Positions 1 through 12,575 of a DNA stretch of 12,575 nt are shown piece by piece. How positions within the stretch are numbered: position 1 is the first letter of the stretch; each line of letters opens with the position of its first letter. The stretch lies in IMG/VR virus record IMGVR_UViG_2778261358_000013, one strand, 5' to 3'. The position numbers were made by a program, and so were the translations under genes. The stretch is from a virus (Duplodnaviria > Heunggongvirae > Uroviricota > Caudoviricetes). The notes under the pieces are model-generated. The model was given only the letters and a program-made list of their open reading frames with translations, was not told the origin of the DNA and did not search any database.

Positions 1-190
1 CAGAACGGCTATTCCATTCGAAGGTGAGCGCCATAATGCACTTGATGACGCCCGTTACCAGGCAAAATACGTTTCAGTTATCTGGCAAAAACTGATCCCG
101 AGTCAGGCTGATTCTTAATGTTCAACTGTCGCCGGTTGTGACTGGTATTCTGCAACCGGCGCTCGTCTGATGTAAGAGATAAAGAAAGCG

Positions 191-442
191 ATGAGCGAAG
201 TAATCATGATTGTCTCTCCCGGCAAATGGGTATCCGAAGAGCAGTTAATTGCGCTGAAAGGAATAAAAAAAGGTACGTTAAAAAAGGCCCGGGAAAAATC
301 GTTTATGGAAGGAAGGGAATATAAGCATGTCGCTCATGACGGTATGCCATGGGATAACAGTCCATGCTTTTACAACCTGGAAGAAATTGATCGCTGGATT
401 GAGCGCCAGGCATCTGCAAGACCAAGACGTCATCTTGCTTGA
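191..442 (+). CDS. Putative excisionase / small DNA-binding protein (Xis-like)
   Basis: 83-aa ORF immediately upstream of and co-oriented with the integrase (stop 440-442, int ATG at 462 or 477). Small basic protein typical of prophage Xis-like genes. No strong SD before ATG 191; function is by position only. Confidence 0.5.
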   Translation: MSEVIMIVSPGKWVSEEQLIALKGIKKGTLKKAREKSFMEGREYKHVAHDGMPWDNSPCFYNLEEIDRWIERQASARPRRHLA

Positions 443-461
443 CTAAAAGCAACACGAACCA

Positions 462-1757
462 ATGAGAGAAGCTGAAATGAAATATCCGACAGGCGTGGAA
501 AACCATGGAGGGAAATTACGTATCTGGTTTGTTTATAAAGGTGTAAGAGTCCGGGAAAATCTTGGGGTTCCTGACACAGCAAAAAACAGGCGCATTGCAG
601 GTGAGCTACGCGCCTCTGTTTGTTACGCAATAAAAACTGGCGCTTTCGACTATGCAAAACAGTTTCCCGCCTCACACAATCTGGAAAAATTTGGTGAGGC
701 CCGACAAGATTTAACCATAAAAGAACTGGCTGAAAAATTTCTGGCACTGAAAGAAACTGAAGTCGCAAAAACGTCACTCAACACGTACCGTGCCGTCATC
801 AAAAATATTCTGAGCATAATCGGTGAAAAAAATCTTGCATCATCGATTAATAAAGAAAAATTGCTGGCGGTACGTAAAGAGTTACTGACTGGATACCAGA
901 TCCCCAAAAGTAACTATATTGTTACACAACCCGGGAGATCGGCTGTTACCGTAAATAATTACATGACAAATCTTTACGCCGTGTTCCAGTTTGGTGTTGA
1001 TAACGGTTATCTGGCAGACAATCCATTTAAGGGGATCTCACCATTAAAGGAGTCGAGAACCATCCCGGATCCACTTTCGCGGGAGGAGTTTATCCGCCTT
1101 ATTGACGCGTGCAGAAATCAGCAAGCCAAAAATTTATGGTGTGTTTCCGTTTATACTGGGATTCGCCCTGGTGAACTCTGTGCGCTTGGATGGGAAGATA
1201 TAGATCTGAAAAATGGAACAATGATAATCAGAAGAAATCTGGCAAAAGACCGTTTTACAGTACCAAAAACACAGGCGGGAACCAATCGTGTGATTCACCT
1301 TATTAAGCCCGCAATCGACGCTCTCCGGAGTCAGATGGCACTAACGAGACTGAGCAAAGAGCATATCATCGATGTTCACCTCAGAGAATTCGGCAGAACA
1401 GAGAAACAAAAATGTACCTTTGTTTTTCAACCTGAAGTGTCAGCGAAAGTAAAAAATTATGGTGACCATTTTACCGTTGACTCAATAAGGCAGATGTGGG
1501 ACGCAGCGGTAAAGCGTGCCGGAATCCGCCATCGCAAATCGTATCAGTCGAGACACACTTATGCCTGCTGGTCGTTAACAGCAGGAGCTAACCCGGCATT
1601 CATTGCAAACCAGATGGGCCATGCAGATGCGCAAATGGTGTTTCAGGTGTACGGGAAATGGATGTCAGAAAATAATAATGCGCAGGTAACGCTGTTAAAT
1701 ACACAGTTAAGCGAGTTTGCCCCAACCATGCCCCATAACGAAGCGATGAAAAGTTAA
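462..1757 (+). CDS. Phage tyrosine integrase (site-specific recombinase)
   Basis: 431-aa ORF. C-terminal catalytic region has the tyrosine-recombinase signature (..SRHTYACWSL..GAN..IANQMGHADAQMVFQVYGKW.. giving the R, H-x-x-R and Y residues). An alternative start at ATG 477 (MKYPTG...) is possible. Confidence 0.85.
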   Translation: MREAEMKYPTGVENHGGKLRIWFVYKGVRVRENLGVPDTAKNRRIAGELRASVCYAIKTGAFDYAKQFPASHNLEKFGEARQDLTIKELAEKFLALKETEVAKTSLNTYRAVIKNILSIIGEKNLASSINKEKLLAVRKELLTGYQIPKSNYIVTQPGRSAVTVNNYMTNLYAVFQFGVDNGYLADNPFKGISPLKESRTIPDPLSREEFIRLIDACRNQQAKNLWCVSVYTGIRPGELCALGWEDIDLKNGTMIIRRNLAKDRFTVPKTQAGTNRVIHLIKPAIDALRSQMALTRLSKEHIIDVHLREFGRTEKQKCTFVFQPEVSAKVKNYGDHFTVDSIRQMWDAAVKRAGIRHRKSYQSRHTYACWSLTAGANPAFIANQMGHADAQMVFQVYGKWMSENNNAQVTLLNTQLSEFAPTMPHNEAMKS

Positions 1758-1944
1758 TTTTTTATTTATCAATTAGTTAGATTGAATGACTCTTGAAATC
1801 CATAAATTCAAGCGCAGTGCCCAGCCATCCCGATACTGCTGCTTTCACCAAATCCTTAGTGCTTCTTTCATGTTTTTCTATTGTCATAATGGTTATCTCT
1901 AAAAAAGAGGTAAGATGCGTACTACTTACTCGCCGTTATTGGTA

Positions 1945-2964
1945 TTATTCAGAAAAAGTGAGCAAGACTTTGCAGCAATGTTTTTGATCCTGTTCAAATA
2001 AACTAATGGCATCAGCAACATGCTGGAAATCAAACGTATGGGTAATTAATTTTTCTGGTTTAATTAACCCTTTACTTAACCAGTCGATAACAACCGGAAA
2101 TTTATTTGCATTTAAGCGTGAAGAGAAAATAGAGAGTTCTTTTCCGGTAATTCCTTGCTGAATCACTTCAGACGGTTCACTGGAGAAGCCCATCAATACA
2201 ATACGTGCCGCTGGAGAAGCCAGCGTTACGGCCTCTTTCAGGATAGAAGGATGACAAGCCGCATCGATAATTAATGTCGGCTTGATGCCTTTTTCAGCGA
2301 AAATCTCGCCAAGCGGTGTCTGGCTGTTATTAATCGCCCAGTCTGCCCCGCTCTCTTTCGCTTTTTCCAGTCGTTCATCAATGCGATCGGCAACAATCAC
2401 ATTTTTAACGTTATAGACGCCTTTTAATACCTGAACGATCGTCAGGCCGATTGGACCGGCACCATAAACCAGAACGGTATCATTTTCAGTCGGTTGACCA
2501 TGACCGGTAACGTTAGCCGCAATGGTAAAAGGTTCGATCATCACCGCATATTGATCGGCCACTGCTTCAGGAATTTTCCACGCATTTTTTGCCGGAACCA
2601 CGGCATATTCACTGAAACCACCGTCAGCGTGCACACCTAATACAGCAAGTGTCGTACAAACGTTCGGCTTACCTATAGAGCACGGATAGCAATGCCCACA
2701 GCTGACCACCGGATCGACAGCAACGCGTTCACCGACTCTGGCGCTTTCCACACCTTCACCCACCGCATCAATGACGCCAAAGAATTCATGACCAATGACG
2801 CGCGGATATTTCGCAAAAGGATTATGCCCACGGTAAATATGGCTATCTGAACCACAAATTCCGGCAAGTTTCACTTTTACTCGTACTTCACCCGCTGACG
2901 GGGTGGGTATTTCACGTTCGATAATCGACAGTTGATTCGGTTTTTCAATTAAAATGCTTTTCAT
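1945..2964 (-). CDS. rspB: Zn-dependent alcohol/sugar dehydrogenase, starvation-sensing protein RspB
   Basis: Translation matches my memory of E. coli RspB (MKSILIEKPNQLSIIEREIPTPSAGEVRVKVKLAGICGSDSHIYRG...; zinc motifs GHEFFG and CGHCYPC). Start set at ATG 2962-2964 with SD AGGAG 7 nt upstream, not the longer track ORF start at 2988. Lies 11 nt downstream of the rspA stop, operon-like. Confidence 0.85.
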   Translation of the reverse strand: MKSILIEKPNQLSIIEREIPTPSAGEVRVKVKLAGICGSDSHIYRGHNPFAKYPRVIGHEFFGVIDAVGEGVESARVGERVAVDPVVSCGHCYPCSIGKPNVCTTLAVLGVHADGGFSEYAVVPAKNAWKIPEAVADQYAVMIEPFTIAANVTGHGQPTENDTVLVYGAGPIGLTIVQVLKGVYNVKNVIVADRIDERLEKAKESGADWAINNSQTPLGEIFAEKGIKPTLIIDAACHPSILKEAVTLASPAARIVLMGFSSEPSEVIQQGITGKELSIFSSRLNANKFPVVIDWLSKGLIKPEKLITHTFDFQHVADAISLFEQDQKHCCKVLLTFSE

Positions 2965-2975
2965 TACCTTACTCC

Positions 2976-4189
2976 TTACCAGTTCCACAGCGTGCCATCT
3001 TCCAGACGTGCGACTGGCAGATAAGCAGGTTCATAGGGATATTTCGCCGCCAGCTTTTCATCGAATTCGATGCCAAGACCCGGTTTGTCTCCCGGATGCA
3101 TATAGCCGTTATCGAAAGTCCAGTTGTGCGGGAAGACTTCGAGCATTTGTTCGGAATAACCCATGTACTCCTGGACACCGAAATTGGGGACCCACAGATC
3201 AAAGTGCAGCGCCGCAGCCATGCAGACTGGTGACAAATCGGAAGGACCGTGTGAGCCAGTACGTACCTGATACAGCGAAGCAAAATCGGCAATCCGGCGC
3301 ATACCGGTAATTCCGCCTGCATGGGTCAGCGTGGTGCGGATATAATCGATGAGTTGCTCTTCAATCAGTTGTTTGCAGTCCCAGATGCTGTTGAAGACTT
3401 CACCCACTGCGATGGGTGTGACGGTATGTTGGCGAATGAGACGGAAGCATTCCTGGTTTTCCGCAGGCGTCGGGTCTTCCATCCAGAACATGCGATAATC
3501 TTCAATGCTTTTACCAAAGCGCGCCGCTTCAATAGGCGTTAAGCGATGGTACATGTCATGCAGCAAATGTTCATTAAAACCAAACTTGTTACGTACCGCG
3601 TCAAACAATTTCGGCATGAAATCGAGGTATTTCTCCGTCGACCACAGCTGCTCTTCCGGCCACTGTCCTTTGGTTGCGGGTTCATAAGCCAGACCTTTAC
3701 CTTTCGACATGCCGTAGGTGGTTTTCATACCAGGGATTCCGCACTGCACGCGGATGGCTTTGAATCCCAGCTCCTGATGACGGGCATAATCATCCAGAGC
3801 TTCATCAATACTGTGACCGGTGGTATGGCAATAAACCATCACCCTTCACGAGACGCGCCGCCGAGTAACTGGTAAAGCGGCATGTTGGTAGCTTTGGCTT
3901 TAATATCCCACAGCGCCATATCAACCGCTGAAATGGCCGACATCGTAACCGGACCGCGACGCCAGTAAGCACCTTTATAGAAAAACTGCCAGATATCTTC
4001 GATACGGTGCGCATCGCGACCAATAAGCTGCGGACAAAGGTGATCCTGCAAATAAGAGGCCACGGAAAGCTCACGTCCATTGAGGGTGGCATCCCCAAGG
4101 CCCGTAATACCGTCCTCAGTGGTGATTTTTAATGTGACGAAATTACGCCCCGGACAGGTAACAAAAACTTCAGCCTTTACGATCTTCAT
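2976..4189 (-). pseudogene. rspA: rspA (enolase-superfamily mannonate-dehydratase-like starvation-sensing protein) interrupted by a 1-bp frameshift
   Basis: Two adjacent track ORFs (3839..4222 and 2976..3842) together read as RspA ([42 protein letters not shown]... then ...[27 protein letters not shown]...). The frame breaks at ..LLGGASREG|, where the plus strand has a ccc run at 3847-3849 and an intact gene would need one more C. Real start ATG 4187-4189 with SD AAGGA. Confidence 0.8.
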
Positions 4190-4394
4190 GTTCGATTCCT
4201 TGCATCGCTTGTCGTGATGCATGAAATCTACGCAACTGAGCTACTACCATACAAGTATAAAGATCGAAAAAAGCCGGAGTGATCACAAAAAAAGGCGTAT
4301 ATTTGCGCTGTGAATGGTTGACAAAAGATGAAATAGAATACCTTTTGTCAGCTGACACTTCCTCTTATCTTATTGATAAAATGGATTTATGTTC

Positions 4395-4721
4395 CTACGT
4401 GCGCCCCCAGCCCGCAACAATGATCAACATGCCGCAAAGCGCAATCAACGCACCCGTCCAGTCATAAAGAGTCAGTTTCACGCCATCCACAACGCGCAGC
4501 CACATCAACGCCGTGCAGACATAAACGCCACCATAAGCCGCGTAAACACGCCCACTCGCCGCTGGATGCAACGTTAACAACCAGACAAACAGCGCCAGTG
4601 AAATCCCCGCCGGAAGCAACAGCCAGATACTGGCGTTTCGTTTTAACCACAACCAGGGCAGAAAGCATCCAATAATTTCACACAGCGCAGTAGCAAAAAA
4701 TAGTAACGTTGTTTTAATCAT
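4395..4721 (-). CDS. ynfA: UPF0060-family inner membrane protein YnfA
   Basis: 108-aa hydrophobic ORF ([26 protein letters not shown]...) matching my memory of E. coli YnfA, in the conserved position between rspA and ynfB. Confidence 0.85.
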
Positions 4722-4855
4722 CTTTGTCTCTTATTGACATCATGTATAGTTATAGGGCGACATAATATCATCAATATAAACACCCTCCTGGTACGTTTTG
4801 CGTCCGCAGTGGATGGTGTAGAATCACCTTTAATCATTCATACAGGGAATGAATT

Positions 4856-5197
4856 ATGAAAATCACTCTCAGCAAACGAATCGGCCTGCTCGCTATTCTG
4901 CTGCCTTGCGCACTGGCATTGAGCACAACTGTTCATGCCGAAACTAACAAACTGGTGATTGAGTCTGGCGACAGTGCACAAAGCCGCCAGCACGCCGCTA
5001 TGGAAAAAGAGCAATGGAATGACACGCGCAATCTGCGCCAGAAAGTGAATAAACGCACTGAAAAAGAGTGGGATAAAGCCGACGCCGCTTTTGATAACCG
5101 CGATAAATGTGAGCAAAGCGCCAACATCAATGCCTACTGGGAGCCCAATACTTTGCGCTGCCTGGACCGTCGAACTGGCCGCGTTATTACCCCCTAA
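4856..5197 (+). CDS. ynfB: Secreted/periplasmic small protein YnfB (signal peptide, function unknown)
   Basis: 113-aa ORF with N-terminal signal peptide ([28 protein letters not shown]|ETN). Divergent from ynfA and directly upstream of speG, as in E. coli. Confidence 0.8.
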
Positions 5198-5231
5198 CCT
5201 GTTATTGATTTAAGGAATGTAAGGACACGTT

Positions 5232-5792
5232 ATGCCAAGCGCCCACAGTGTTAAGCTACGCCCGCTGGAGCGTGAAGATTTACGCTATGTACATCAACTC
5301 GACAACAACGCCAGTGTGATGCGTTACTGGTTTGAGGAACCCTACGAAGCCTTTGTTGAACTCTCTGATCTGTATGATAAGCATATTCACGATCAGAGCG
5401 AACGGCGCTTTGTGGTGGAATGTGACGGCGAAAAAGCCGGTCTGGTGGAGCTGGTGGAAATTAACCATGTTCATCGCCGCGCAGAATTTCAGATAATTAT
5501 CTCCCCGGAGTATCAGGGGAAAGGTCTGGCAACCCGTGCCGCCAAATTAGCAATGGACTATGGCTTTACCGTTCTCAATCTCTATAAGCTGTATCTGATC
5601 GTTGATAAAGAGAATGAAAAAGCGATTCACATTTACCGCAAGCTTGGCTTTTCGGTTGAAGGTGAATTGATGCACGAGTTCTTTATTAATGGTCAATATC
5701 GTAATGCCATTCGCATGTGTATATTCCAGCATCAGTATCTGGCAGAGCACAAAACACCGGGTCAGACTCTCCTGAAGCCGACCGCACAATAG
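5232..5792 (+). CDS. speG: Spermidine N1-acetyltransferase (GNAT family)
   Basis: 186-aa [44 protein letters not shown]... recognised as SpeG. GNAT acetyl-CoA motif region (..[18 protein letters not shown]..) present. Confidence 0.9.
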
Positions 5793-5794
5793 CA

Positions 5795-6505
5795 TTAATA
5801 ATAATCGATCGTATTTTTGATGGTGTAAACCCGTTCGACGGCGGGTTTTACTCCTTCATCAACAATGATTAGCTGACAGTCCACCGGATTAGCGTGACTG
5901 TCATATTCACAGCTCTGTTTTACATTACCAACCCGTTGATTATTCAGTAAAGTAACCGCTGTGTAATCTAATTTTTTGATCGGATCCGTTGATGGCGTGG
6001 CGCTGACAGATAATGTTTTGTCGTTACTTTTCGTGGTTTTACCCAGCGGATAACCCTGATCATCATAGCGATATTCCATCTGCATTTGTTTGCTGCTGGC
6101 TTTAATCACGAAGCCATTATCATCGGTTTCCCAACTCACCCCGGCAGAAGGTAATTCTGCTAGCTGGCATTTTCCCTGTAAACGTACTCTCTTCTCCAGC
6201 GTCTCGGCATCACGGTAATAATTGGCGTCCAGTACCAGAGCGACCACGGTATTATTTTCCAGATCCAGTAATTCGAGTGAATCAAAACAGCCTTCTTCCG
6301 ACAAAGTCCCAGAAACACGTTTCGTCACTTCACCTTGCTCATCCATTAATGTCTGAGTGAAATCTTTTACCGGACCACGCAGCGGATCAAAATCGAATTC
6401 ATTAGAGAAACTGGCCATCTCAGGGGTAAATGAAAGTGTTACCTCTGTGCGGTCACATCCTGTGAGGAATATCGCGAGTAAGCATGGTAGTAATTTGTAT
6501 TTCAC
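5795..6505 (-). CDS. ynfC: Lipoprotein YnfC (UPF0257 family)
   Basis: Convergent with speG (stops 2 nt apart). Lipobox LLAIFLTGC near the N-terminus. Start placed at GTG 6503-6505 (VKYKLLPCLL..) to give a 236-aa lipoprotein precursor; the track ORF starts 12 codons upstream at ATG 6541. Confidence 0.8.
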   Translation of the reverse strand: MKYKLLPCLLAIFLTGCDRTEVTLSFTPEMASFSNEFDFDPLRGPVKDFTQTLMDEQGEVTKRVSGTLSEEGCFDSLELLDLENNTVVALVLDANYYRDAETLEKRVRLQGKCQLAELPSAGVSWETDDNGFVIKASSKQMQMEYRYDDQGYPLGKTTKSNDKTLSVSATPSTDPIKKLDYTAVTLLNNQRVGNVKQSCEYDSHANPVDCQLIIVDEGVKPAVERVYTIKNTIDYY

Positions 6506-6609
6506 AACAGTCACCAGAGAGTAGAGATGATTCTCAATCATAGTAGCAAATACAGTACTTTACACGTTAAATGCTATGCTTAAAGAAGTTATCTTCGCGT
6601 AAGGAGCTT

Positions 6610-6918
6610 ATGATGAAACTCTCAACCTGCTGTGCCGCGCTTCTGCTCGCCCTCGCCTCACCCGTGGTACTCGCCGCGCCGGGATCCTGTGAGCGCATAC
6701 AGAGCGATATATCACAGCGCATTATCAATAATGGCGTACCCGAAAGCAGCTTCACGTTAAGTATTGTACCCAATGACCAGGTTGATCAGCCTGATTCCCA
6801 GGTCGTCGGCCATTGCGCTAATGATACGCATAAAATTCTCTATACCCGCACCACCAGCGGTAACGTCTCTGCTCCCGCGCAGTCTACCCAGGATGGCGCG
6901 CCTGCCGAACCGCAGTAA
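6610..6918 (+). CDS. ynfD: Small secreted protein YnfD (DUF1161-like)
   Basis: Start ATG 6610 (or 6613) preceded by SD AAGGAG at 6601-6606. Signal peptide MMKLSTCCAALLLALASPVVLA|AP. Assigned by sequence plus conserved position upstream of ynfE. Confidence 0.75.
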   Translation: MMKLSTCCAALLLALASPVVLAAPGSCERIQSDISQRIINNGVPESSFTLSIVPNDQVDQPDSQVVGHCANDTHKILYTRTTSGNVSAPAQSTQDGAPAEPQ

Positions 6919-6934
6919 TACATTATCGACTGAA

Positions 6935-6962
6935 CGCCGGATACGACACATCCGGCGATTTG
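6935..6962 (+). terminator. Candidate rho-independent terminator after ynfD
   Basis: Perfect 8-bp stem cgccggat (6935-6942) / atccggcg (6950-6957) with 7-nt loop acgacac, followed by ATTTG 17 nt after the ynfD stop. Confidence 0.45.
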
Positions 6963-7003
6963 AACATACAACATAATCCCACCTTATTACTCATACCCTT
7001 CTA

Positions 7004-7017
7004 TTGATATGGATTAA
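7004..7017 (+). promoter_or_regulatory. FNR-like half-palindrome TTGAT-N4-ATTAA about 100 bp upstream of ynfE
   Basis: ttgatatggattaa matches the FNR/CRP-family consensus TTGAT-N4-ATCAA with one mismatch. The ynfEFGH operon is anaerobically expressed in E. coli (established); the site assignment is inference. Confidence 0.3.
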
Positions 7018-7116
7018 TAATTCTTAACCCAAAATGGGTAGACTCCCTCTATTGTTAGCGCGCTAAATATTCAATATATAAACATTTATATAACGATAAA
7101 GAACAGGGAGTGAGTT

Positions 7117-8526
7117 ATGTCCAAAAATGACCGAATGGTGGGCATCAGCCGCAGAACACTCGTTAAATCAACCGCGATAGGTTCTCTGGCGCTGGCTGCA
7201 GGCGGTTTTTCTTTACCGTTCACCCTGCGCAGTGCAGCGGCAACGGTACAACAGGCCAGCGAAAAAGTGATCTGGGGTGCCTGTTCCGTCAACTGTGGTA
7301 GCCGCTGTGCACTTCGTCTACATGTTAAAGATAATGAAGTGACCTGGGTGGAAACTGACAATACCGGCAGCGATGAGTACGGCAACCATCAGGTACGCGC
7401 CTGTTTGCGCGGTCGCTCCATCCGCCGGCGTATTAATCATCCCGATCGCTTGAATTACCCAATGAAACGCGTGGGTACACGCGGTGAAGGCAAATTCGAA
7501 CGGATTAGCTGGGATGAAGCCCTGGATACTATCGCCAGTAGCCTGAAAAAAACCGTCGAACAATATGGCAATGAGGCTGTATATATTCAGTACTCTTCGG
7601 GGATTGTTGGCGGCAATATGACCCGCTCTTCGCCATCAGCCTCGGCGGTCAAACGCCTGATGAACTGCTACGGCGGTTCACTCAATCAGTATGGCTCCTA
7701 CAGCACCGCGCAAATTTCCTGTGCCATGCCCTACACCTACGGCAGTAATGATGGCAACAGCACCACGGATATTGAAAACAGCAAGCTGGTCGTGATGTTT
7801 GGTAACAACCCGGCAGAAACCCGCATGAGCGGCGGTGGCATCACTTATCTTCTTGAAAAAGCGCGCGAGAAATCGAACGCCAAAATGATTGTTATCGATC
7901 CGCGATATACCGATACGGCTGCTGGTCGTGAAGATGAATGGCTCCCTATTCGCCCGGGCACCGATGCCGCGCTGGTTGCGGGTATTGCCTGGGTATTGAT
8001 TAACGAAAATCTCGTTGATCAACCTTTTCTCGATAAATACTGCGTCGGCTATGACGAAAAAACCTTACCCGCAGATGCACCCAAAAATGGTCACTATAAA
8101 GCCTATATTCTTGGTGAAGGTGATGATAACACAGCGAAAACGCCGCAGTGGGCTTCGCAAATTACCGGTATCCCGGTAGACCGTATCATCAAACTGGCGC
8201 GTGAAATTGGCACAGCAAAACCCGCTTATATCTGCCAGGGCTGGGGGCCGCAACGCCAGGCAAACGGCGAACTGACTGCACGCGCTATTGCTATGTTACC
8301 TATTTTGACGGGCAATGTCGGCATCAGCGGCGGAAATAGTGGCGCGCGTGAATCGACCTATACCATTACCATAGAACGCCTGCCGGTGCTGGATAATCCG
8401 GTCAAAACGTCAATCTCCTGCTTCAGCTGGACAGATGCTATCGATCATGGTCCGCAAATGACGGCAATCCGCGACGGCGTCCGCGGCAAAGATAAACTGG
8501 ATGTGCCCATTAAGTTCATCTGGAAC
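7117..8526 (+). pseudogene. ynfE: 5-prime portion (~470 codons) of ynfE, molybdopterin oxidoreductase / DMSO-reductase-family catalytic subunit, truncated by foreign DNA
   Basis: Tat signal (MSKNDRMVGISRRTLVKSTAIGSLALAAGG...AAA) and N-terminal Cys cluster (CSVNCGSRCALRLH) typical of DmsA/YnfE-type enzymes. The homologous reading ends at ...DVPIKFIWN (codon ending 8526). The track ORF then runs 22 unrelated codons (FKDLKRLLVRVTRDLSRPEVLH) to a stop at 8593-8595. Full-length proteins of this family are about 800 aa. Confidence 0.8.
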
Positions 8527-8787
8527 TTCAAGGACTTGAAGCGGTTACTCGTTAGAGTCACGAGAGACCTTAGTAGGCCTGAGGTCCTGCATTGAGTCAA
8601 GGACTTTGTGTCATTCTTTGTGCCAGACTTGTGTCATTAGACGGGATTTCTAGACGGCTGGTCAGGACCCCGGTGGCCTCGGTCTGGACTTGAGGCGGGG
8701 CTATGGGGGAAGTCTGCTGGCTTAATGTATTAGATGGTCATTCACATTTTTCTGTCAGAAACCATCGGTCCCACTGTGAGTCCAAAC
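8527..8787 (-). repeat. Non-coding terminal-repeat-like region of the foreign segment, with T7-group-like end motifs on the minus strand
   Basis: No ORF longer than 15 codons on the minus strand. Minus strand carries CTCACAGTG-G-GACC (8767-8780) and TTCCCCCATAG (8701-8711), resembling the first ~35 nt of the T7 terminal repeat (TCTCACAGTGTACGGACCTAAAGTTCCCCCATAGGGGG, from memory). Short direct repeats tcaaggactt (8528, 8596) and gactt(t)gtgtcatt (8600, 8618). Confidence 0.4.
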
Positions 8788-8943
8788 CTAAGCTCCCAGA
8801 AGCCCACCCACAGCCTTAGACAGAGTGTCGAATACATTCACACCGAGTCGACCGGAGAGGACCATATAGAGACCCACAGAGAGGAACACGAGTTTATAGA
8901 CCAGAGTCAGGAGGGACCTTAGGTCTGCGGAAGTCATGGACAT
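8788..8943 (-). CDS. Small single-pass membrane protein (51 aa), hypothetical
   Basis: Hand-translated ORF below the track size cutoff: MSMTSADLRSLLTLVYKLVFLSVGLYMVLSGRLGVNVFDTLSKAVGGLLGA. Strong SD AGGAGG (complement of 8949-8954) 4 nt upstream of ATG 8941-8943. One hydrophobic helix (LLTLVYKLVFLSVGLYMVL). Last ORF before the terminal non-coding region. Confidence 0.45.
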   Translation of the reverse strand: MSMTSADLRSLLTLVYKLVFLSVGLYMVLSGRLGVNVFDTLSKAVGGLLGA

Positions 8944-8996
8944 AAAGCCTCCTTCGTCTATTGTACTACTGCACTAGATAACTAGTACAAAACAAA

Positions 8997-9021
8997 GGTC
9001 CAGACCATTGGTCCAGACCAT
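8997..9021. repeat. Tandem direct repeat 2 x ggtccagaccat (period 13)
   Basis: 8997-9008 and 9010-9021 are identical 12-mers separated by one T, in a 238-bp non-coding gap (8944-9181). Each copy contains the GGTC-NN-GACC palindrome. Confidence 0.6.
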
Positions 9022-9181
9022 AGTTATCATGATGATTGGAACGATTGAACGGTAGGCACTTTACATCTCACCCACTGTTCAGCTTCAGCCAGTGACCAGC
9101 ATAGCCGCTTATAGACTCTGCGTGTCATCCAGATTGTTGCTTGATATCGTCCACCCTCCACAGGCTGTATAGATGTCTTAA

Positions 9182-9421
9182 TCACAGTGACAGGCCACCA
9201 CCTGAAGTCCTGCTGATATTCAGTCCAGACTTACCCCTGCTCATGGTCTTACCTCCCTCGGTCTCATGACCTTGGGTATCGACTACAGCTTGCTGAGCGT
9301 CATCTGGAGGAGCTACAGGAGGAGCTACAGGAGGCGGGACCGAAGCCCCACCTTGAGTCCCACCACCACCTGTCAGGCCCTTGGCGATGGACCTGAAGCC
9401 TTTACTAATGCTCTTACCCAT
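9182..9421 (-). CDS. Hypothetical Gly/Pro/Ala-rich small protein (79 aa), probably disordered
   Basis: ORF begins 5 nt after the stop of the upstream 328-aa gene, with no separate SD (possible translational coupling). Contains GGGGTQGG and PPPVAPPVAPP, the latter encoded by a 12-bp tandem repeat. Low-complexity, so the coding call is tentative. Confidence 0.35.
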   Translation of the reverse strand: MGKSISKGFRSIAKGLTGGGGTQGGASVPPPVAPPVAPPDDAQQAVVDTQGHETEGGKTMSRGKSGLNISRTSGGGLSL

Positions 9422-9426
9422 TGGTC

Positions 9427-10413
9427 TTACGCTTCGGTCTTGGTGAACTTCAGGCGTTTGACTACAGGCAGGACGGCAGTAGCTGAGCCAGTGCCCATCT
9501 TGATGGTCGTAGCAGCTTCAGCGACAACGAACACTTTACCGAGGATTTCCAGAGAGTGAGACTGAGAGTCGCCATCACGTGAAAGGATGACCGTAATATT
9601 CTCGCCATCGTGACGGAAGCAACCGAAGCTAAGAGCCGTAAAACGCTTAGCCATCATGAACACGCCACGGTCTTCACCGTTGTAATACGCAATATCCGTC
9701 CCCAGCATATCGACGATAGCGTCTTCACCACCGAAGCCCTGCTTAGCAGCCAGACGGGAGAGAGCCTTGAGGTGTGACTCATGGGCGATGATACCGTAAT
9801 CAGTAACCTCAGAACCGAAAGAAGATTCGGTGTTGTCATACAGAGCATCCATGATAGCATCTGCCTTAGCGGTCAGGCTGCCAGTCAGGACCGGAAGCTC
9901 TACGGTCTTCAACAGTTTGGAGGACTCCAGAACGTCGACCATGCGAGCGTTGATGGTACGGACCACATTCTCACAGATGTTCATAGCATCCTGCTGAAGT
10001 GTGCCCTGAGTGAATCCGGTGGATGACTTGGCGTCCCAGAGCTTGGTCTGCTCAGAGATGAGAATAGCCCGCTCGATTGGTTCGACCACGATTTCTTGTC
10101 CAGACGGAACGGTCACGACTTCAGGTCGCTTACCACCACGGACAGGAACAACCACAGAGCGGTTAGCCAGAGTGTGAGCAATGATTGGAGTAGGCAGGCT
10201 ATTGCGGGTAGGCAGGACTTCTACAGGGAACGGGATGTTCTCCTGAGCGGATTTCAGAACACCATTCAGCATTGTCTTAACCAGTTTAGCCAGCTCAAAG
10301 GCGTAGACCTGAGGGTCTGCGTTAGTTGGCAATCCTTCGTTAATCTGAATGTTGTCGGTGTCGGTGATACGTACTGGCTCAATGCCGAACTGTAAAGCGT
10401 CTTTAATCGTCAT
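9427..10413 (-). CDS. Hypothetical protein (328 aa), function unknown
   Basis: Long ORF. The track start at 10422 is a TTG; the likely start is ATG 10411-10413 (MTIKDALQFG...) with SD AGGAGA 9 nt upstream. No catalytic or nucleotide-binding motif recognised by eye. Confidence 0.7.
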   Translation of the reverse strand: MTIKDALQFGIEPVRITDTDNIQINEGLPTNADPQVYAFELAKLVKTMLNGVLKSAQENIPFPVEVLPTRNSLPTPIIAHTLANRSVVVPVRGGKRPEVVTVPSGQEIVVEPIERAILISEQTKLWDAKSSTGFTQGTLQQDAMNICENVVRTINARMVDVLESSKLLKTVELPVLTGSLTAKADAIMDALYDNTESSFGSEVTDYGIIAHESHLKALSRLAAKQGFGGEDAIVDMLGTDIAYYNGEDRGVFMMAKRFTALSFGCFRHDGENITVILSRDGDSQSHSLEILGKVFVVAEAATTIKMGTGSATAVLPVVKRLKFTKTEA

Positions 10414-10488
10414 AATAATCAATCTCCTGAATTAGTTTGGATACTGTGGGTCCCGACATCAGGTCAGGACCACTTGTGTGTCTGTGTC

Positions 10489-10980
10489 TTAGAGGCTGTC
10501 CATCCAGTTGTCCGTGGACTCAATGTCAGCGACCATAGAAGCACGGGAGCGCCCAGCGGAATGGGTAGCACTGCGGAGGTGCTCACCATAGGTCCGGCGT
10601 TCAGCTTTGACCTGTTCACGGCGCTGTAGCTCTTTCTGCCACTCTGCATCAGTCATGTTCTCTTCACGCATACGCTCAGCCTGAATGCGCTGCTCTTTAG
10701 CAATACGCTCAGCTTCGGCTCGCTTGTTCTGCTGGCGGCGACCATAGGCGGTCATCAGGTCATTACTGAAGAAGTTACCAATGGTCACGCCAGCTTCAGC
10801 CAGAGCTTCCAGTAACTCCATTGCCTCGCGGCTGGTAGACGGCAGGCCTGACAGGTAGCCCGGAATGAGGGTCTTGATAGCGAGCGACAGCGGATAGGGC
10901 TGACCATCCAGACTCACAGTATTCTCGTAGAGATTGATGTCGGTGACTGACAGTTTCCAGTCTTGGTTATTGAATAACAT
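10489..10980 (-). CDS. Hypothetical protein (163 aa) with charged Arg/Glu/Gln-rich predicted helical segment
   Basis: SD AGGAG 8 nt upstream of ATG 10978-10980. Central segment QQNKRAEAERIAKEQRIQAERMREENMTDAEWQKELQRREQVKAERR is typical of a coiled coil or single alpha-helix domain. Confidence 0.65.
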   Translation of the reverse strand: MLFNNQDWKLSVTDINLYENTVSLDGQPYPLSLAIKTLIPGYLSGLPSTSREAMELLEALAEAGVTIGNFFSNDLMTAYGRRQQNKRAEAERIAKEQRIQAERMREENMTDAEWQKELQRREQVKAERRTYGEHLRSATHSAGRSRASMVADIESTDNWMDSL

Positions 10981-11079
10981 AGTAATTACTCCTCTTGAGA
11001 GTTGAGACTATCGGTCAACCACAGGCGTGTTCAGTCCTGCGGCGTCTCCCCGCATCGGTCATCTCAAAAGGTGTTTAAA

Positions 11080-11262
11080 TTAGGCAGACAGTTTCATAGA
11101 GACCAGTTGCGCTATTAGCTCGTCTCGTGATTGGTGCTGGCGGGTCTCATCTTCTGGGTCCAGACCTAGCTCCTTCAGGATGACTTCAGTCCGGTAGCCA
11201 CGGTAACGGAGAGTCATGCGACCCTCAGGTGTGCGTGGGTCGATATGTTGTTTAGTTGTCAT
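11080..11262 (-). CDS. Hypothetical small protein (60 aa)
   Basis: ATG 11260-11262 lies 2 nt after the TAA stop of the upstream 84-aa gene, with SD GAGGA 9 nt upstream. Same strand and codon style as its neighbours. Confidence 0.5.
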   Translation of the reverse strand: MTTKQHIDPRTPEGRMTLRYRGYRTEVILKELGLDPEDETRQHQSRDELIAQLVSMKLSA

Positions 11263-11264
11263 TG

Positions 11265-11519
11265 TTAGAAGTCCTCGTTAGACCAATCATCCACGTCAAA
11301 TTCACTGGTGATAGGTGCTTGGAAGTTAGGTAGACCCTCTGGTATCTCTAGAGGCAGTCGCTCGTCGATTCTCAGTGCCATCTCTTCGTATATATGCCGA
11401 AGCAGAGAAGTCAGTAAGATAGGGTCCACAGGATGCTCAGGGCCGTGTCTCTCAATGAAGCACATGGTTGTCGCTATTGACTCCATAATCAGTTCATCAG
11501 TGAGTCGCTTAGAACCCAT
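11265..11519 (-). CDS. Strongly acidic small protein (84 aa) with acidic C-terminal tail ending in Phe (...EFDVDDWSNEDF)
   Basis: The track ORF is 101 aa from ATG 11570, but the likely start is ATG 11517-11519 (MGSKRLTDELIMES...), which overlaps the last codons of the upstream 281-aa gene (sequence ctATGGGTTCTAAgcg; stop at 11509-11511) as in translational coupling. About 18 Asp/Glu against 6 Lys/Arg. Confidence 0.55.
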   Translation of the reverse strand: MGSKRLTDELIMESIATTMCFIERHGPEHPVDPILLTSLLRHIYEEMALRIDERLPLEIPEGLPNFQAPITSEFDVDDWSNEDF

Positions 11520-12354
11520 AGTCGGACCCCTTGCCCGCTGCTGCTTTCTGGGACTTTGTAGCCTTACCATTCAGGTGAGAATCCACCAGACGACGGACAA
11601 CCTTGATATTGGATGTGCGCATGTCATGAGCGATATCCTTCCAGTTATCCTTCAGCCAGTCATAACCCTTGCGTAGAATCTTGATGGTAGGCTCTTTGTC
11701 GTTAGGCTGTGGCTGTAGACGATAGTAGCCGTTGATCTCACCTTTCTTATTGAAGATGGCTCGTGGACGTCCGGTCGATAGGTCTATAGCCGTAATGCCA
11801 AACTCAGTAACACGCTTGGTGTAGAATGGGTTAGGACGACACAGGGTCTTCAGATATCCAGTCAGGACGCTAGCTGTCAGCAGCTTAGAGCTGGTCAACT
11901 TAAGGTCCAGAGCTTTAATAACCTCGGTAGGCGTGGCTCCTGACTTGGAGTCCAGCTTGGAGTCGAGGACGATAGCACCGGGCGCATAGCTGATAGCTTT
12001 AGTCTGTGCAACCTGAAGTTTCTGGGCCTGAAGTTCGAGGACCTCTTGCTCCTTCTGGCGAATATAGGCTAGGACCTTACGACGCACAGCTTTAGACTCA
12101 CGCATCCCGACTAGTAGAAGCTGGTCAGTGTTGAGGGTATAGCTTTTAACGTCCTTCCCGAAGCTTACGAAAATTTCGTAGGTCACATTTTGACCTTCCA
12201 GCTCATCCTCAATACGGGACACAAAGTCGTTATTACGGACAGGCTTCTCCCCCGCTTCTTCACGAGCCGGATTAATAACCTTGGTTAGAAAATCGTGGGA
12301 GGTCATAGACACAAGCTGGTCGAGGTTAATGATGCTAATTTCTTTGGATGACAT
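11509..12354 (-). CDS. Hypothetical protein (281 aa), function unknown
   Basis: Long ORF with SD AAGGAG 9 nt upstream of ATG 12352-12354. Lys/Arg-rich C-terminus. No motif recognised by eye. First gene of the minus-strand run visible in the window. Confidence 0.7.
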   Translation of the reverse strand: MSSKEISIINLDQLVSMTSHDFLTKVINPAREEAGEKPVRNNDFVSRIEDELEGQNVTYEIFVSFGKDVKSYTLNTDQLLLVGMRESKAVRRKVLAYIRQKEQEVLELQAQKLQVAQTKAISYAPGAIVLDSKLDSKSGATPTEVIKALDLKLTSSKLLTASVLTGYLKTLCRPNPFYTKRVTEFGITAIDLSTGRPRAIFNKKGEINGYYRLQPQPNDKEPTIKILRKGYDWLKDNWKDIAHDMRTSNIKVVRRLVDSHLNGKATKSQKAAAGKGSDYGF

Positions 12355-12496
12355 ATCGTTGTACTCCTTTTGTTATGCCTCCTGAAGTCACACCCTGAAA
12401 GCCTACTCAAGCCCCCAACGATAGGGAGACTCACAGGCAACAGGAGACATACAGAAAGACTTGAGGTAATAAGGTCGTGTGAAGACCATAGTTGAT

Positions 12497-12534
12497 AAGT
12501 AAGCGTCAACGGAGCACCGTATTGACGCTTATTT
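12497..12534. promoter_or_regulatory. Strong inverted repeat / stem-loop upstream of the 281-aa gene (candidate processing site, terminator or operator)
   Basis: Perfect 10-bp inverted repeat taagcgtcaa (12500-12509) / ttgacgctta (12522-12531) around a 12-nt centre that itself pairs cgg/ccg. Flanked by aataaataa on one side. Lies ~150 bp upstream of the 281-aa start. Confidence 0.4.
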
Positions 12535-12575
12535 ATTAGTGAGTACTACGTTCCATGGCAGGAGTTCGTCAACTC

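Follow-up and report, generated by a model that had tools for sequence, protein, structure and literature searches.

Which DNA separates a phage integrase gene from the host gene rspB, and at which base does phage sequence give way to chromosome? We took up this question for a 12,575-nucleotide stretch of viral DNA (IMG/VR record IMGVR_UViG_2778261358_000013; "the window" is this stretch at its full length), at the left end of which an excisionase-like gene (xis) and a tyrosine integrase gene (int) run towards rspB. The first-pass annotation had read the arrangement as the end of a prophage, with an intact int/xis pair lying directly against rspB and the attachment (att) core in or near the 187-bp spacer at 1758-1944. 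The open reading frames (ORFs) are placed as it proposed, with the xis-like gene at 191-442 and int at 462-1757 on the plus strand and the rspB stop at 1945 on the minus strand, and the 187-bp spacer is indeed AT-rich (35.8% G+C; 48.2% for the whole window). The adjacency of int/xis and rspB also stands, but most of the spacer is a 5' stub of ydfJ. This stub had been overlooked, and with it the integration of the prophage inside the ydfJ coding sequence and the inactivation of that gene. We conclude, with a probability of about 0.93, that window positions 1-1810 are the integrase-proximal end (B-O-P' in lambda terms) of a lambda-like prophage of the PPydfJ/Qin site, inserted in ydfJ.

The att core within ydfJ

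The core was defined by lining up five sequences: an empty attB, the int-proximal junction, a far junction, a phage attP and the junction between the tandem prophages of the O26:H11 strain 11368 (NC_013361).

attB, strain GMM060: ...ataaCTgGAAATCCATAAaTTCAagcg...
int-proximal junction, window: ...gactCTtGAAATCCATAAaTTCAagcg...
far junction, OkiPb01688 prophage: ...ataaCTgGAAATCCATAA-TTCAtaga...
attP, phage mEp460: ...gactCTtGAAATCCATAA-TTCAcagg...
junction between tandem prophages, O26 11368: attP-like

An exact 11-mer, GAAATCCATAA (window 1795-1805), is common to the empty-site attB, the window junction, the far junction of the 45.5-kb OkiPb01688 prophage and the attP of mEp460, which includes CTTGAAATCCATAATTCA. 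This 11-mer lies within an 18/19-bp near-identity at 1792-1810. To the left of 1795 the bases are of phage type (T1794, with a T/G mismatch at 1794), and the AAA at 1804-1806 is of host type. In genomes with an uninterrupted ydfJ, the match to the window starts only at 1792 or 1795 and runs rightwards; one of these genomes, GMM060, is colinear with window 1792-5049 at 99.5%. From the other side, the free phages mEp460, Tritos, HannyBb and PhiR42_1 match window 1-1810 at 94%, and the match ends there. The att core is thus placed at 1792-1810, inside the spacer where it had been expected, and it agrees with the 18/19-bp att defined for ydfJ prophages by Nakamura et al. 2021 (PMC8112680). As read from these alignments, the five-site pattern is that of classical conservative site-specific recombination.

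In empty-site genomes, ydfJ lies directly downstream of rspB across a 57-bp gap, and the intact gene encodes a 455-amino acid (aa) transporter of the MHS family within the major facilitator superfamily. The spacer of the window consists of 37 bp of phage DNA (1758-1794), the head of ydfJ (1795-1887) and the 57-bp rspB-ydfJ intergenic region. The core and the host side of the junction are made up as follows.

1792..1810, no strand: att core, the int-proximal hybrid junction, CTTGAAATCCATAAATTCA; boundaries from empty-site genomes and free phages
1777..1887, minus strand: ydfJ stub, with its start codon at 1887-1885, 31 native codons to 1795 and then phage-read K-S-H-S-I-stop
1888..1944, no strand: native rspB-ydfJ intergenic region, 57 bp of host DNA, colinear with the empty site of GMM060 (99.5% from 1792)
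1945..2964, minus strand: rspB, a Zn-dependent oxidoreductase (ADH_N, ADH_zinc_N; relatives' annotation) and the first intact host gene

Translation of the stub gives MTIEKHERSTKDLVKAAVSGWLGTALEFMDF followed by KSHSI and a stop, where the 455-aa YdfJ of GMM060 begins MTIEKHERSTKDLVKAAVSGWLGTALEFMDFQLYSLG... The rspB start annotated in relatives corresponds to window 2964. Judged from the interrupted reading frame, insertion of the prophage within its coding sequence inactivates ydfJ.

The integrase module and its relatives

Three genes, or parts of genes, make up the phage side of the junction.

1..118, plus strand: 3' end of an exonuclease gene, aligning with the end of the "exonuclease" coding sequence of O26 11368 (L001 17656-20118)
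191..442, plus strand: xis, a putative excisionase of 83 aa, DUF1233/XisR-like (PF06806, E=1.6e-31, residues 5-73)
462..1757, plus strand: int, a tyrosine integrase, 431-aa ORF (PF12167, E=6.7e-24; PF00589, E=5.1e-19)

The exonuclease is of the lambdoid early-left-operon type (~820 aa), is the last prophage gene before xis and is also annotated in phage mEp460. Its last 118 bp are the only lambdoid gene content in the window, the full set being found in the relatives. Before position 932 there are zero differences between the window and O26 11368. The xis gene lies directly upstream of int in the same orientation, its stop (442) falling 19-34 bp before the int start. Its product is identical at 82 of 83 residues (99%) to the excisionase of the free phage mEp460, its homologue is annotated in relatives as "excisionase family protein", and the Pfam label of PF06806 (DUF1233) is "putative excisionase".

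Within the 431-aa ORF of int, an N-terminal arm-type DNA-binding domain (PF12167, Arm-DNA-bind_2) occupies residues 9-71, and PF00589 represents the phage integrase catalytic domain. The family matches of Xis and Int alike lie well outside what chance would give. Alignment to the Int of Tn1549, with M1 at 462, identifies the catalytic residues R235, K269, R364 and H387 and the nucleophile Y397, in line with the earlier description of a full-length integrase with its catalytic residues. The H-x-x-R box carries a tyrosine (Y361) at the position of its first histidine. Since this tyrosine also occurs in mEp460 Int, from a free phage, we read Y361 as a trait of the family and not as a lesion. Additionally, int probably begins at the ATG at 477 (MKYPTG..., 426 aa), where the annotation of mEp460 places it; the match to the arm-domain profile likewise sets in only at residue 9 of the longer, 431-aa ORF.

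No lesion was found in xis, int or the exonuclease 3' end. The Int protein is 100% identical to that of OkiPb01688, differs by 2 aa (Q415L, A428E) from the Int of the 11368 prophage PPydfJ-R and is identical to mEp460 Int at 409 of 426 positions (96%). With these relatives, it is reasonable at the level of sequence to say, as had been done, that the module looks functional. A scan of the whole window against Rfam returned no family at gathering score.

The closest genomes carry the same int/xis pair at the end of whole prophages. OkiPb01688 is 99.94% identical over window 1-3200, and a second copy of the core lies 45,475 bp away, beside the remaining 3' portion of ydfJ. The interval holds a complete lambda-like genome, with a repressor region, replication genes, Q, lysis, terminase, portal, capsid and tail genes, J and tail fibres, along with paa and a frameshifted M85 peptidase gene. 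Strain 11368 is 99.88% identical at the DNA level over window 1-8527 and has the same junction to the base. There, int/xis closes a complete nleC-carrying prophage, PPydfJ-R, to the right of a Qin-like prophage riddled with insertion sequences (IS), in which IS66 interrupts xis, IS600 interrupts int and the excisionase fragments are annotated xisR. Both the OkiPb01688 and the PPydfJ-R prophages are essentially complete, at 45-48 kb. Taken with the lambdoid exonuclease end at 1-118, this closing position in the nearest genomes bears out the assignment of a prophage end. PPydfJ-R has the same exonuclease-xis-int-att-ydfJ stub-rspB order as the window, but it stands on the right in a pair of tandem prophages, and 11368, unlike the window, is without an island in ynfE (described below). 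For PPydfJ-R, Nakamura et al. 2021 (PLoS Pathog; PMC8112680) report a sequenced PCR amplicon containing attP, which in our analysis amounts to published evidence of excision for a nearly identical element.

The same exonuclease-xis-int-attP block is present in the free phages mEp460, Tritos, HannyBb and PhiR42_1, where the core is followed by the P arm in place of the ydfJ DNA of the window. Part of their 6% divergence in DNA falls in the phage stretch from the int stop to the core. Among the Stx2a-converting phage records LC727844-LC727872, 19 match the 3' end of int, and 14 match at 100% over ~1467-1807, covering the last ~340 bp of int and the core, with the match ending at ~1807. As read from these matches, the Stx2a phage records show mosaic integrases that share their C-terminal end and att specificity with the window Int.

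The Qin prophage of K-12 occupies the same chromosomal site with the same junction core (L005 20096), and its integrase remnant (intQ') is identical to the homologous window Int at 370 of 387 aa. While xis and int of the window are whole, Qin of K-12 C600 has lost the N-terminus of int beside an IS2 remnant, has no xis, has a truncated exonuclease and has lost most structural genes. Ramisetty and Sudhakari (PMC6379469) likewise place the integration of Qin at the 5' end of ydfJ, and they name intQ mutations as a cause of "grounding". The C600 junction and this report together support the earlier statement that K-12 holds the defective Qin at the equivalent position.

The junction of int, ydfJ stub and rspB occurs in 2660 of 5426 complete E. 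coli genomes (about half), and xis together with the int 5' region in 2534. Given these counts, an occupied site with an apparently whole int/xis head is the common state, and the truncated form of K-12 is a minority. The whole window at high identity was found in no complete E. coli genome searched (best 91% coverage, 96.8%), because its variant of the ynfE island is unrepresented (best 94.5%).

The module resembles that of lambda in layout. In both, the leftward early operon ends with int, which sits next to attP and has a small Xis gene just upstream; Int combines an arm-binding N-domain with a tyrosine-recombinase domain, the core is short and the int-side arm contains an IHF-like site (integration host factor). 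However, there is no close sequence relationship to lambda: sequence matches of Int in the PDB are to distant tyrosine recombinases only, such as Tn1549 Int, and lambda Int is not among them. Moreover, the window Xis belongs to a different family (DUF1233), and Int has Tyr for the first His of H-x-x-R. In addition, lambda attB is intergenic, whereas the target of the window phage lies inside a coding sequence and the gene is destroyed. Integration at the 5' end of a host gene is shared with the Rac prophage (IntR/XisR), which is found at the 5' end of ttcA (PMC6379469). Rac has a different target gene and core; the link to it is the xisR label on the excisionase of the left 11368 prophage, which belongs to the same kind of int/xis module.

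Recombination model and competing explanations

On our reading, the phage has integrated by site-specific recombination at codons 27-32 of ydfJ, just downstream of rspB. Beyond the genes, domains, catalytic residues, junction and core, and the recurrence of the core at the far end in relatives, we infer the steps of the mechanism from the lambda paradigm. Int would act as a heterobivalent recombinase, its N-domain on arm-type sites of attP and its core-binding and catalytic domains flanking the overlap in GAAATCCATAA, and Y397 would cleave and rejoin the strands via a Holliday intermediate. Bending by IHF at 1767-1779 would probably assist. Recombination of attP with attB would split ydfJ after codon 31, leaving the promoter with the stub beside int. 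The rest of the gene would lie without a promoter at the far end, where the core copy, CTGGAAATCCATAATTCA, would adjoin ydfJ codons ~28-455. Upon induction, Xis, predicted to be co-transcribed with the exonuclease and int from the early leftward operon, would turn Int to excision. Excision would release a circular phage, whose attP would read ...GACTCTTGAAATCCATAATTCA..., and would restore attB as ...CTGGAAATCCATAAATTCA... ydfJ would be rebuilt exactly, because the mismatches (T/G at 1794, length of the A-run at 1804-1806) sit at the edges of the core.

For IHF, the phage arm in the window offers one candidate.

1767..1779, plus strand: IHF-consensus match TATCAATTAGTTA in the phage arm; fits WATCAANNNNTTR and lies 12 bp (1780-1791) from the 19-bp att

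The position of this motif is kept in mEp460 and K-12 Qin despite differing neighbouring bases, a hint that 1767-1779 is possibly an H'-like IHF bending site. As for arm-type sites, the window holds the int-side arm only, and the attP of mEp460 contains three copies of GTTTTTTC in its far arm and a core-like 21-mer inside int, all of them short enough to be chance. The 21-mer, TGAAAACAATAATGCACAGGT, lies in the 3' coding region of mEp460 int (L004 3167-3187; window ~1665-1690) and is 86% identical to the mEp460 attP core; it may be a chance resemblance or a secondary site of Int binding.

Several observations weigh against the assignment of a ydfJ prophage end and the model built on it. The window begins 190 bp upstream of xis, so the body of the prophage and its far end lie outside. 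Occupants of the site are often decayed or rearranged, as in K-12 Qin and the IS-riddled left prophage of 11368, and deletions and inversions have been reported at ydfJ prophages (PMC9997748, PMC8767318). The IHF match is statistically weak by itself: the window holds two matches to the consensus with 0.58 expected, and 23 of 200 shuffles reach at least two. The repeats in mEp460 attP are of doubtful significance and allow no confident placement of arm-type sites. Lastly, a promoter and terminator scan of 1-2100 gave none on the plus strand by xis, int or the spacer, and fewer matches than in shuffles; neither a pI-like nor a tI-like element near int can be claimed.

If the prophage has gone the way of Qin, the window would show the intact int/xis/att end of a grounded, cryptic remnant, the rest of which is deleted or disrupted by IS elements and which at most excises without yielding phage. 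We regard this as a serious prospect, at somewhat under even odds. Decay is frequent at the locus, as K-12 Qin and the IS66 and IS600 insertions in xis and int of the left 11368 prophage illustrate. The literature adds intQ mutations (PMC6379469) and deletions between tandem prophages (PMC9997748), and the window itself contains other lesions, a frameshift in rspA and the island in ynfE. Yet xis, int and the exonuclease 3' end are free of lesions, and the nearest genomes, OkiPb01688 and 11368 with PPydfJ-R, carry essentially complete prophages of 45-48 kb. A cryptic remnant would differ from the ydfJ prophage end as we describe it solely in DNA outside the window. Because complete and decayed occupants both occur at the ydfJ site, we put the odds that the prophage of this strain is complete or inducible at slightly better than even.

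The int/xis pair might also belong to a non-phage integrative island or a phage satellite that uses the ydfJ site, and small integrase-bearing islands do occur nearby, one of them in ynfE of the same window. This origin is largely refuted and very improbable: a lambdoid exonuclease lies directly upstream of xis, lambdoid early and late genes stand behind int/xis in every relative inspected, and four isolated phages have the same exonuclease-xis-int-attP block. That phages often target the 3' ends of genes is, a priori, the sole point for a crossover at the rspB 3' end or in the rspB-ydfJ intergenic region, which would make the whole 187-bp spacer phage DNA. The colinearity of window 1792-5049 at 99.5% with a genome that carries an unbroken ydfJ, together with the end of phage homology at 1810, refutes a crossover outside 1792-1810 and leaves this placement a negligible chance.

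The intact int/xis of the ydfJ prophage end could further be thought of as a reversible ydfJ/ydfI switch ("regulated gene integrity" or active lysogeny), an idea that arises because the phage cuts ydfJ at codons 27-32 and about half of the complete E. coli genomes are occupied. We consider it unlikely. If true, a subpopulation of cells would regain a whole transporter gene by excising the phage under stress. The genes rspA, rspB, ydfJ and ydfI, the last downstream of ydfJ, presumably form a cluster for L-gulonate/mannonate utilisation; a literature search on their L-gulonate role gave no usable support.

Neighbouring features and significance

Two further features of the window lie on the host side of rspB. 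In rspA (minus strand), a 1-bp deletion relative to O26 11368 in a homopolymer run (C on the plus strand) at 3841/3842 yields two ORFs, 2976-3842 and 3839-4222; either the gene is truly a pseudogene or the homopolymer was misread in sequencing. Farther along, a second integrated element interrupts ynfE, with its boundary at 8527/8528, and occupies window 8528-12575, continuing past the window end. The copy in UMNK88 (L006 3231-9795) is ~6.6 kb long, lies between copies of an 11-bp direct repeat, CATCTGGAACT, and has a 540-aa tyrosine integrase at its far end. In the window, the island encodes a KilA-N/anti-repressor-like protein, two small unknowns, a 331-aa protein and a 79-aa T7 gp7.3 homologue (phrog_1320, E=3e-11). 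The 331-aa protein, which is unannotated, had no match in Pfam, PHROGs, a PDB profile search or tblastn against phages; fold comparison was the sole search to give a signal, and on that signal the protein is predicted to be capsid-fold.

The module of the ynfE island was found in 312 of the 5426 complete genomes. An episomal state of the ynfE island was ruled out by its ordinary chromosomal contig context, and the island looks like a minimal satellite-type element. One region, 11245-12348 (anti-repressor/KilA-N-like), is unmatched at the nucleotide level in the UMNK88 copy, although its flanks match at 95-100%, and by this comparison it looks like a swapped regulatory cassette. ynfE has already been catalogued as a target of integrative elements (PMC7192596), and we found no published description of the island's capsid-like gene. 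The island is more intriguing than the ydfJ prophage end, to which it is unrelated.

The prophage end itself is already known and ordinary. It belongs to the described Qin-site/PPydfJ lambdoid prophages and has an integrase specificity of the mEp460 type, and earlier publications cover its site, its att sequence, the relic in K-12 and the circular attP. The value of the present analysis is therefore in annotation. What had passed for a spacer is the cut-off head of ydfJ, the core is located to the base (1792-1810), int probably starts at 477, and PCR assays for attP and attB in this strain can be designed directly from the mapped coordinates. Several studies of Shiga toxin-producing E. coli (STEC) list ydfJ among the standard loci for prophages and as one that undergoes deletions and inversions (PMC8112680, PMC9997748, PMC8767318). 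In the epidemiology of STEC and enteropathogenic E. coli, ydfJ prophages matter as carriers of type III effectors such as nleC and of additional integration sites for phages, and as mediators of chromosomal inversions (PMC8112680, PMC8767318).

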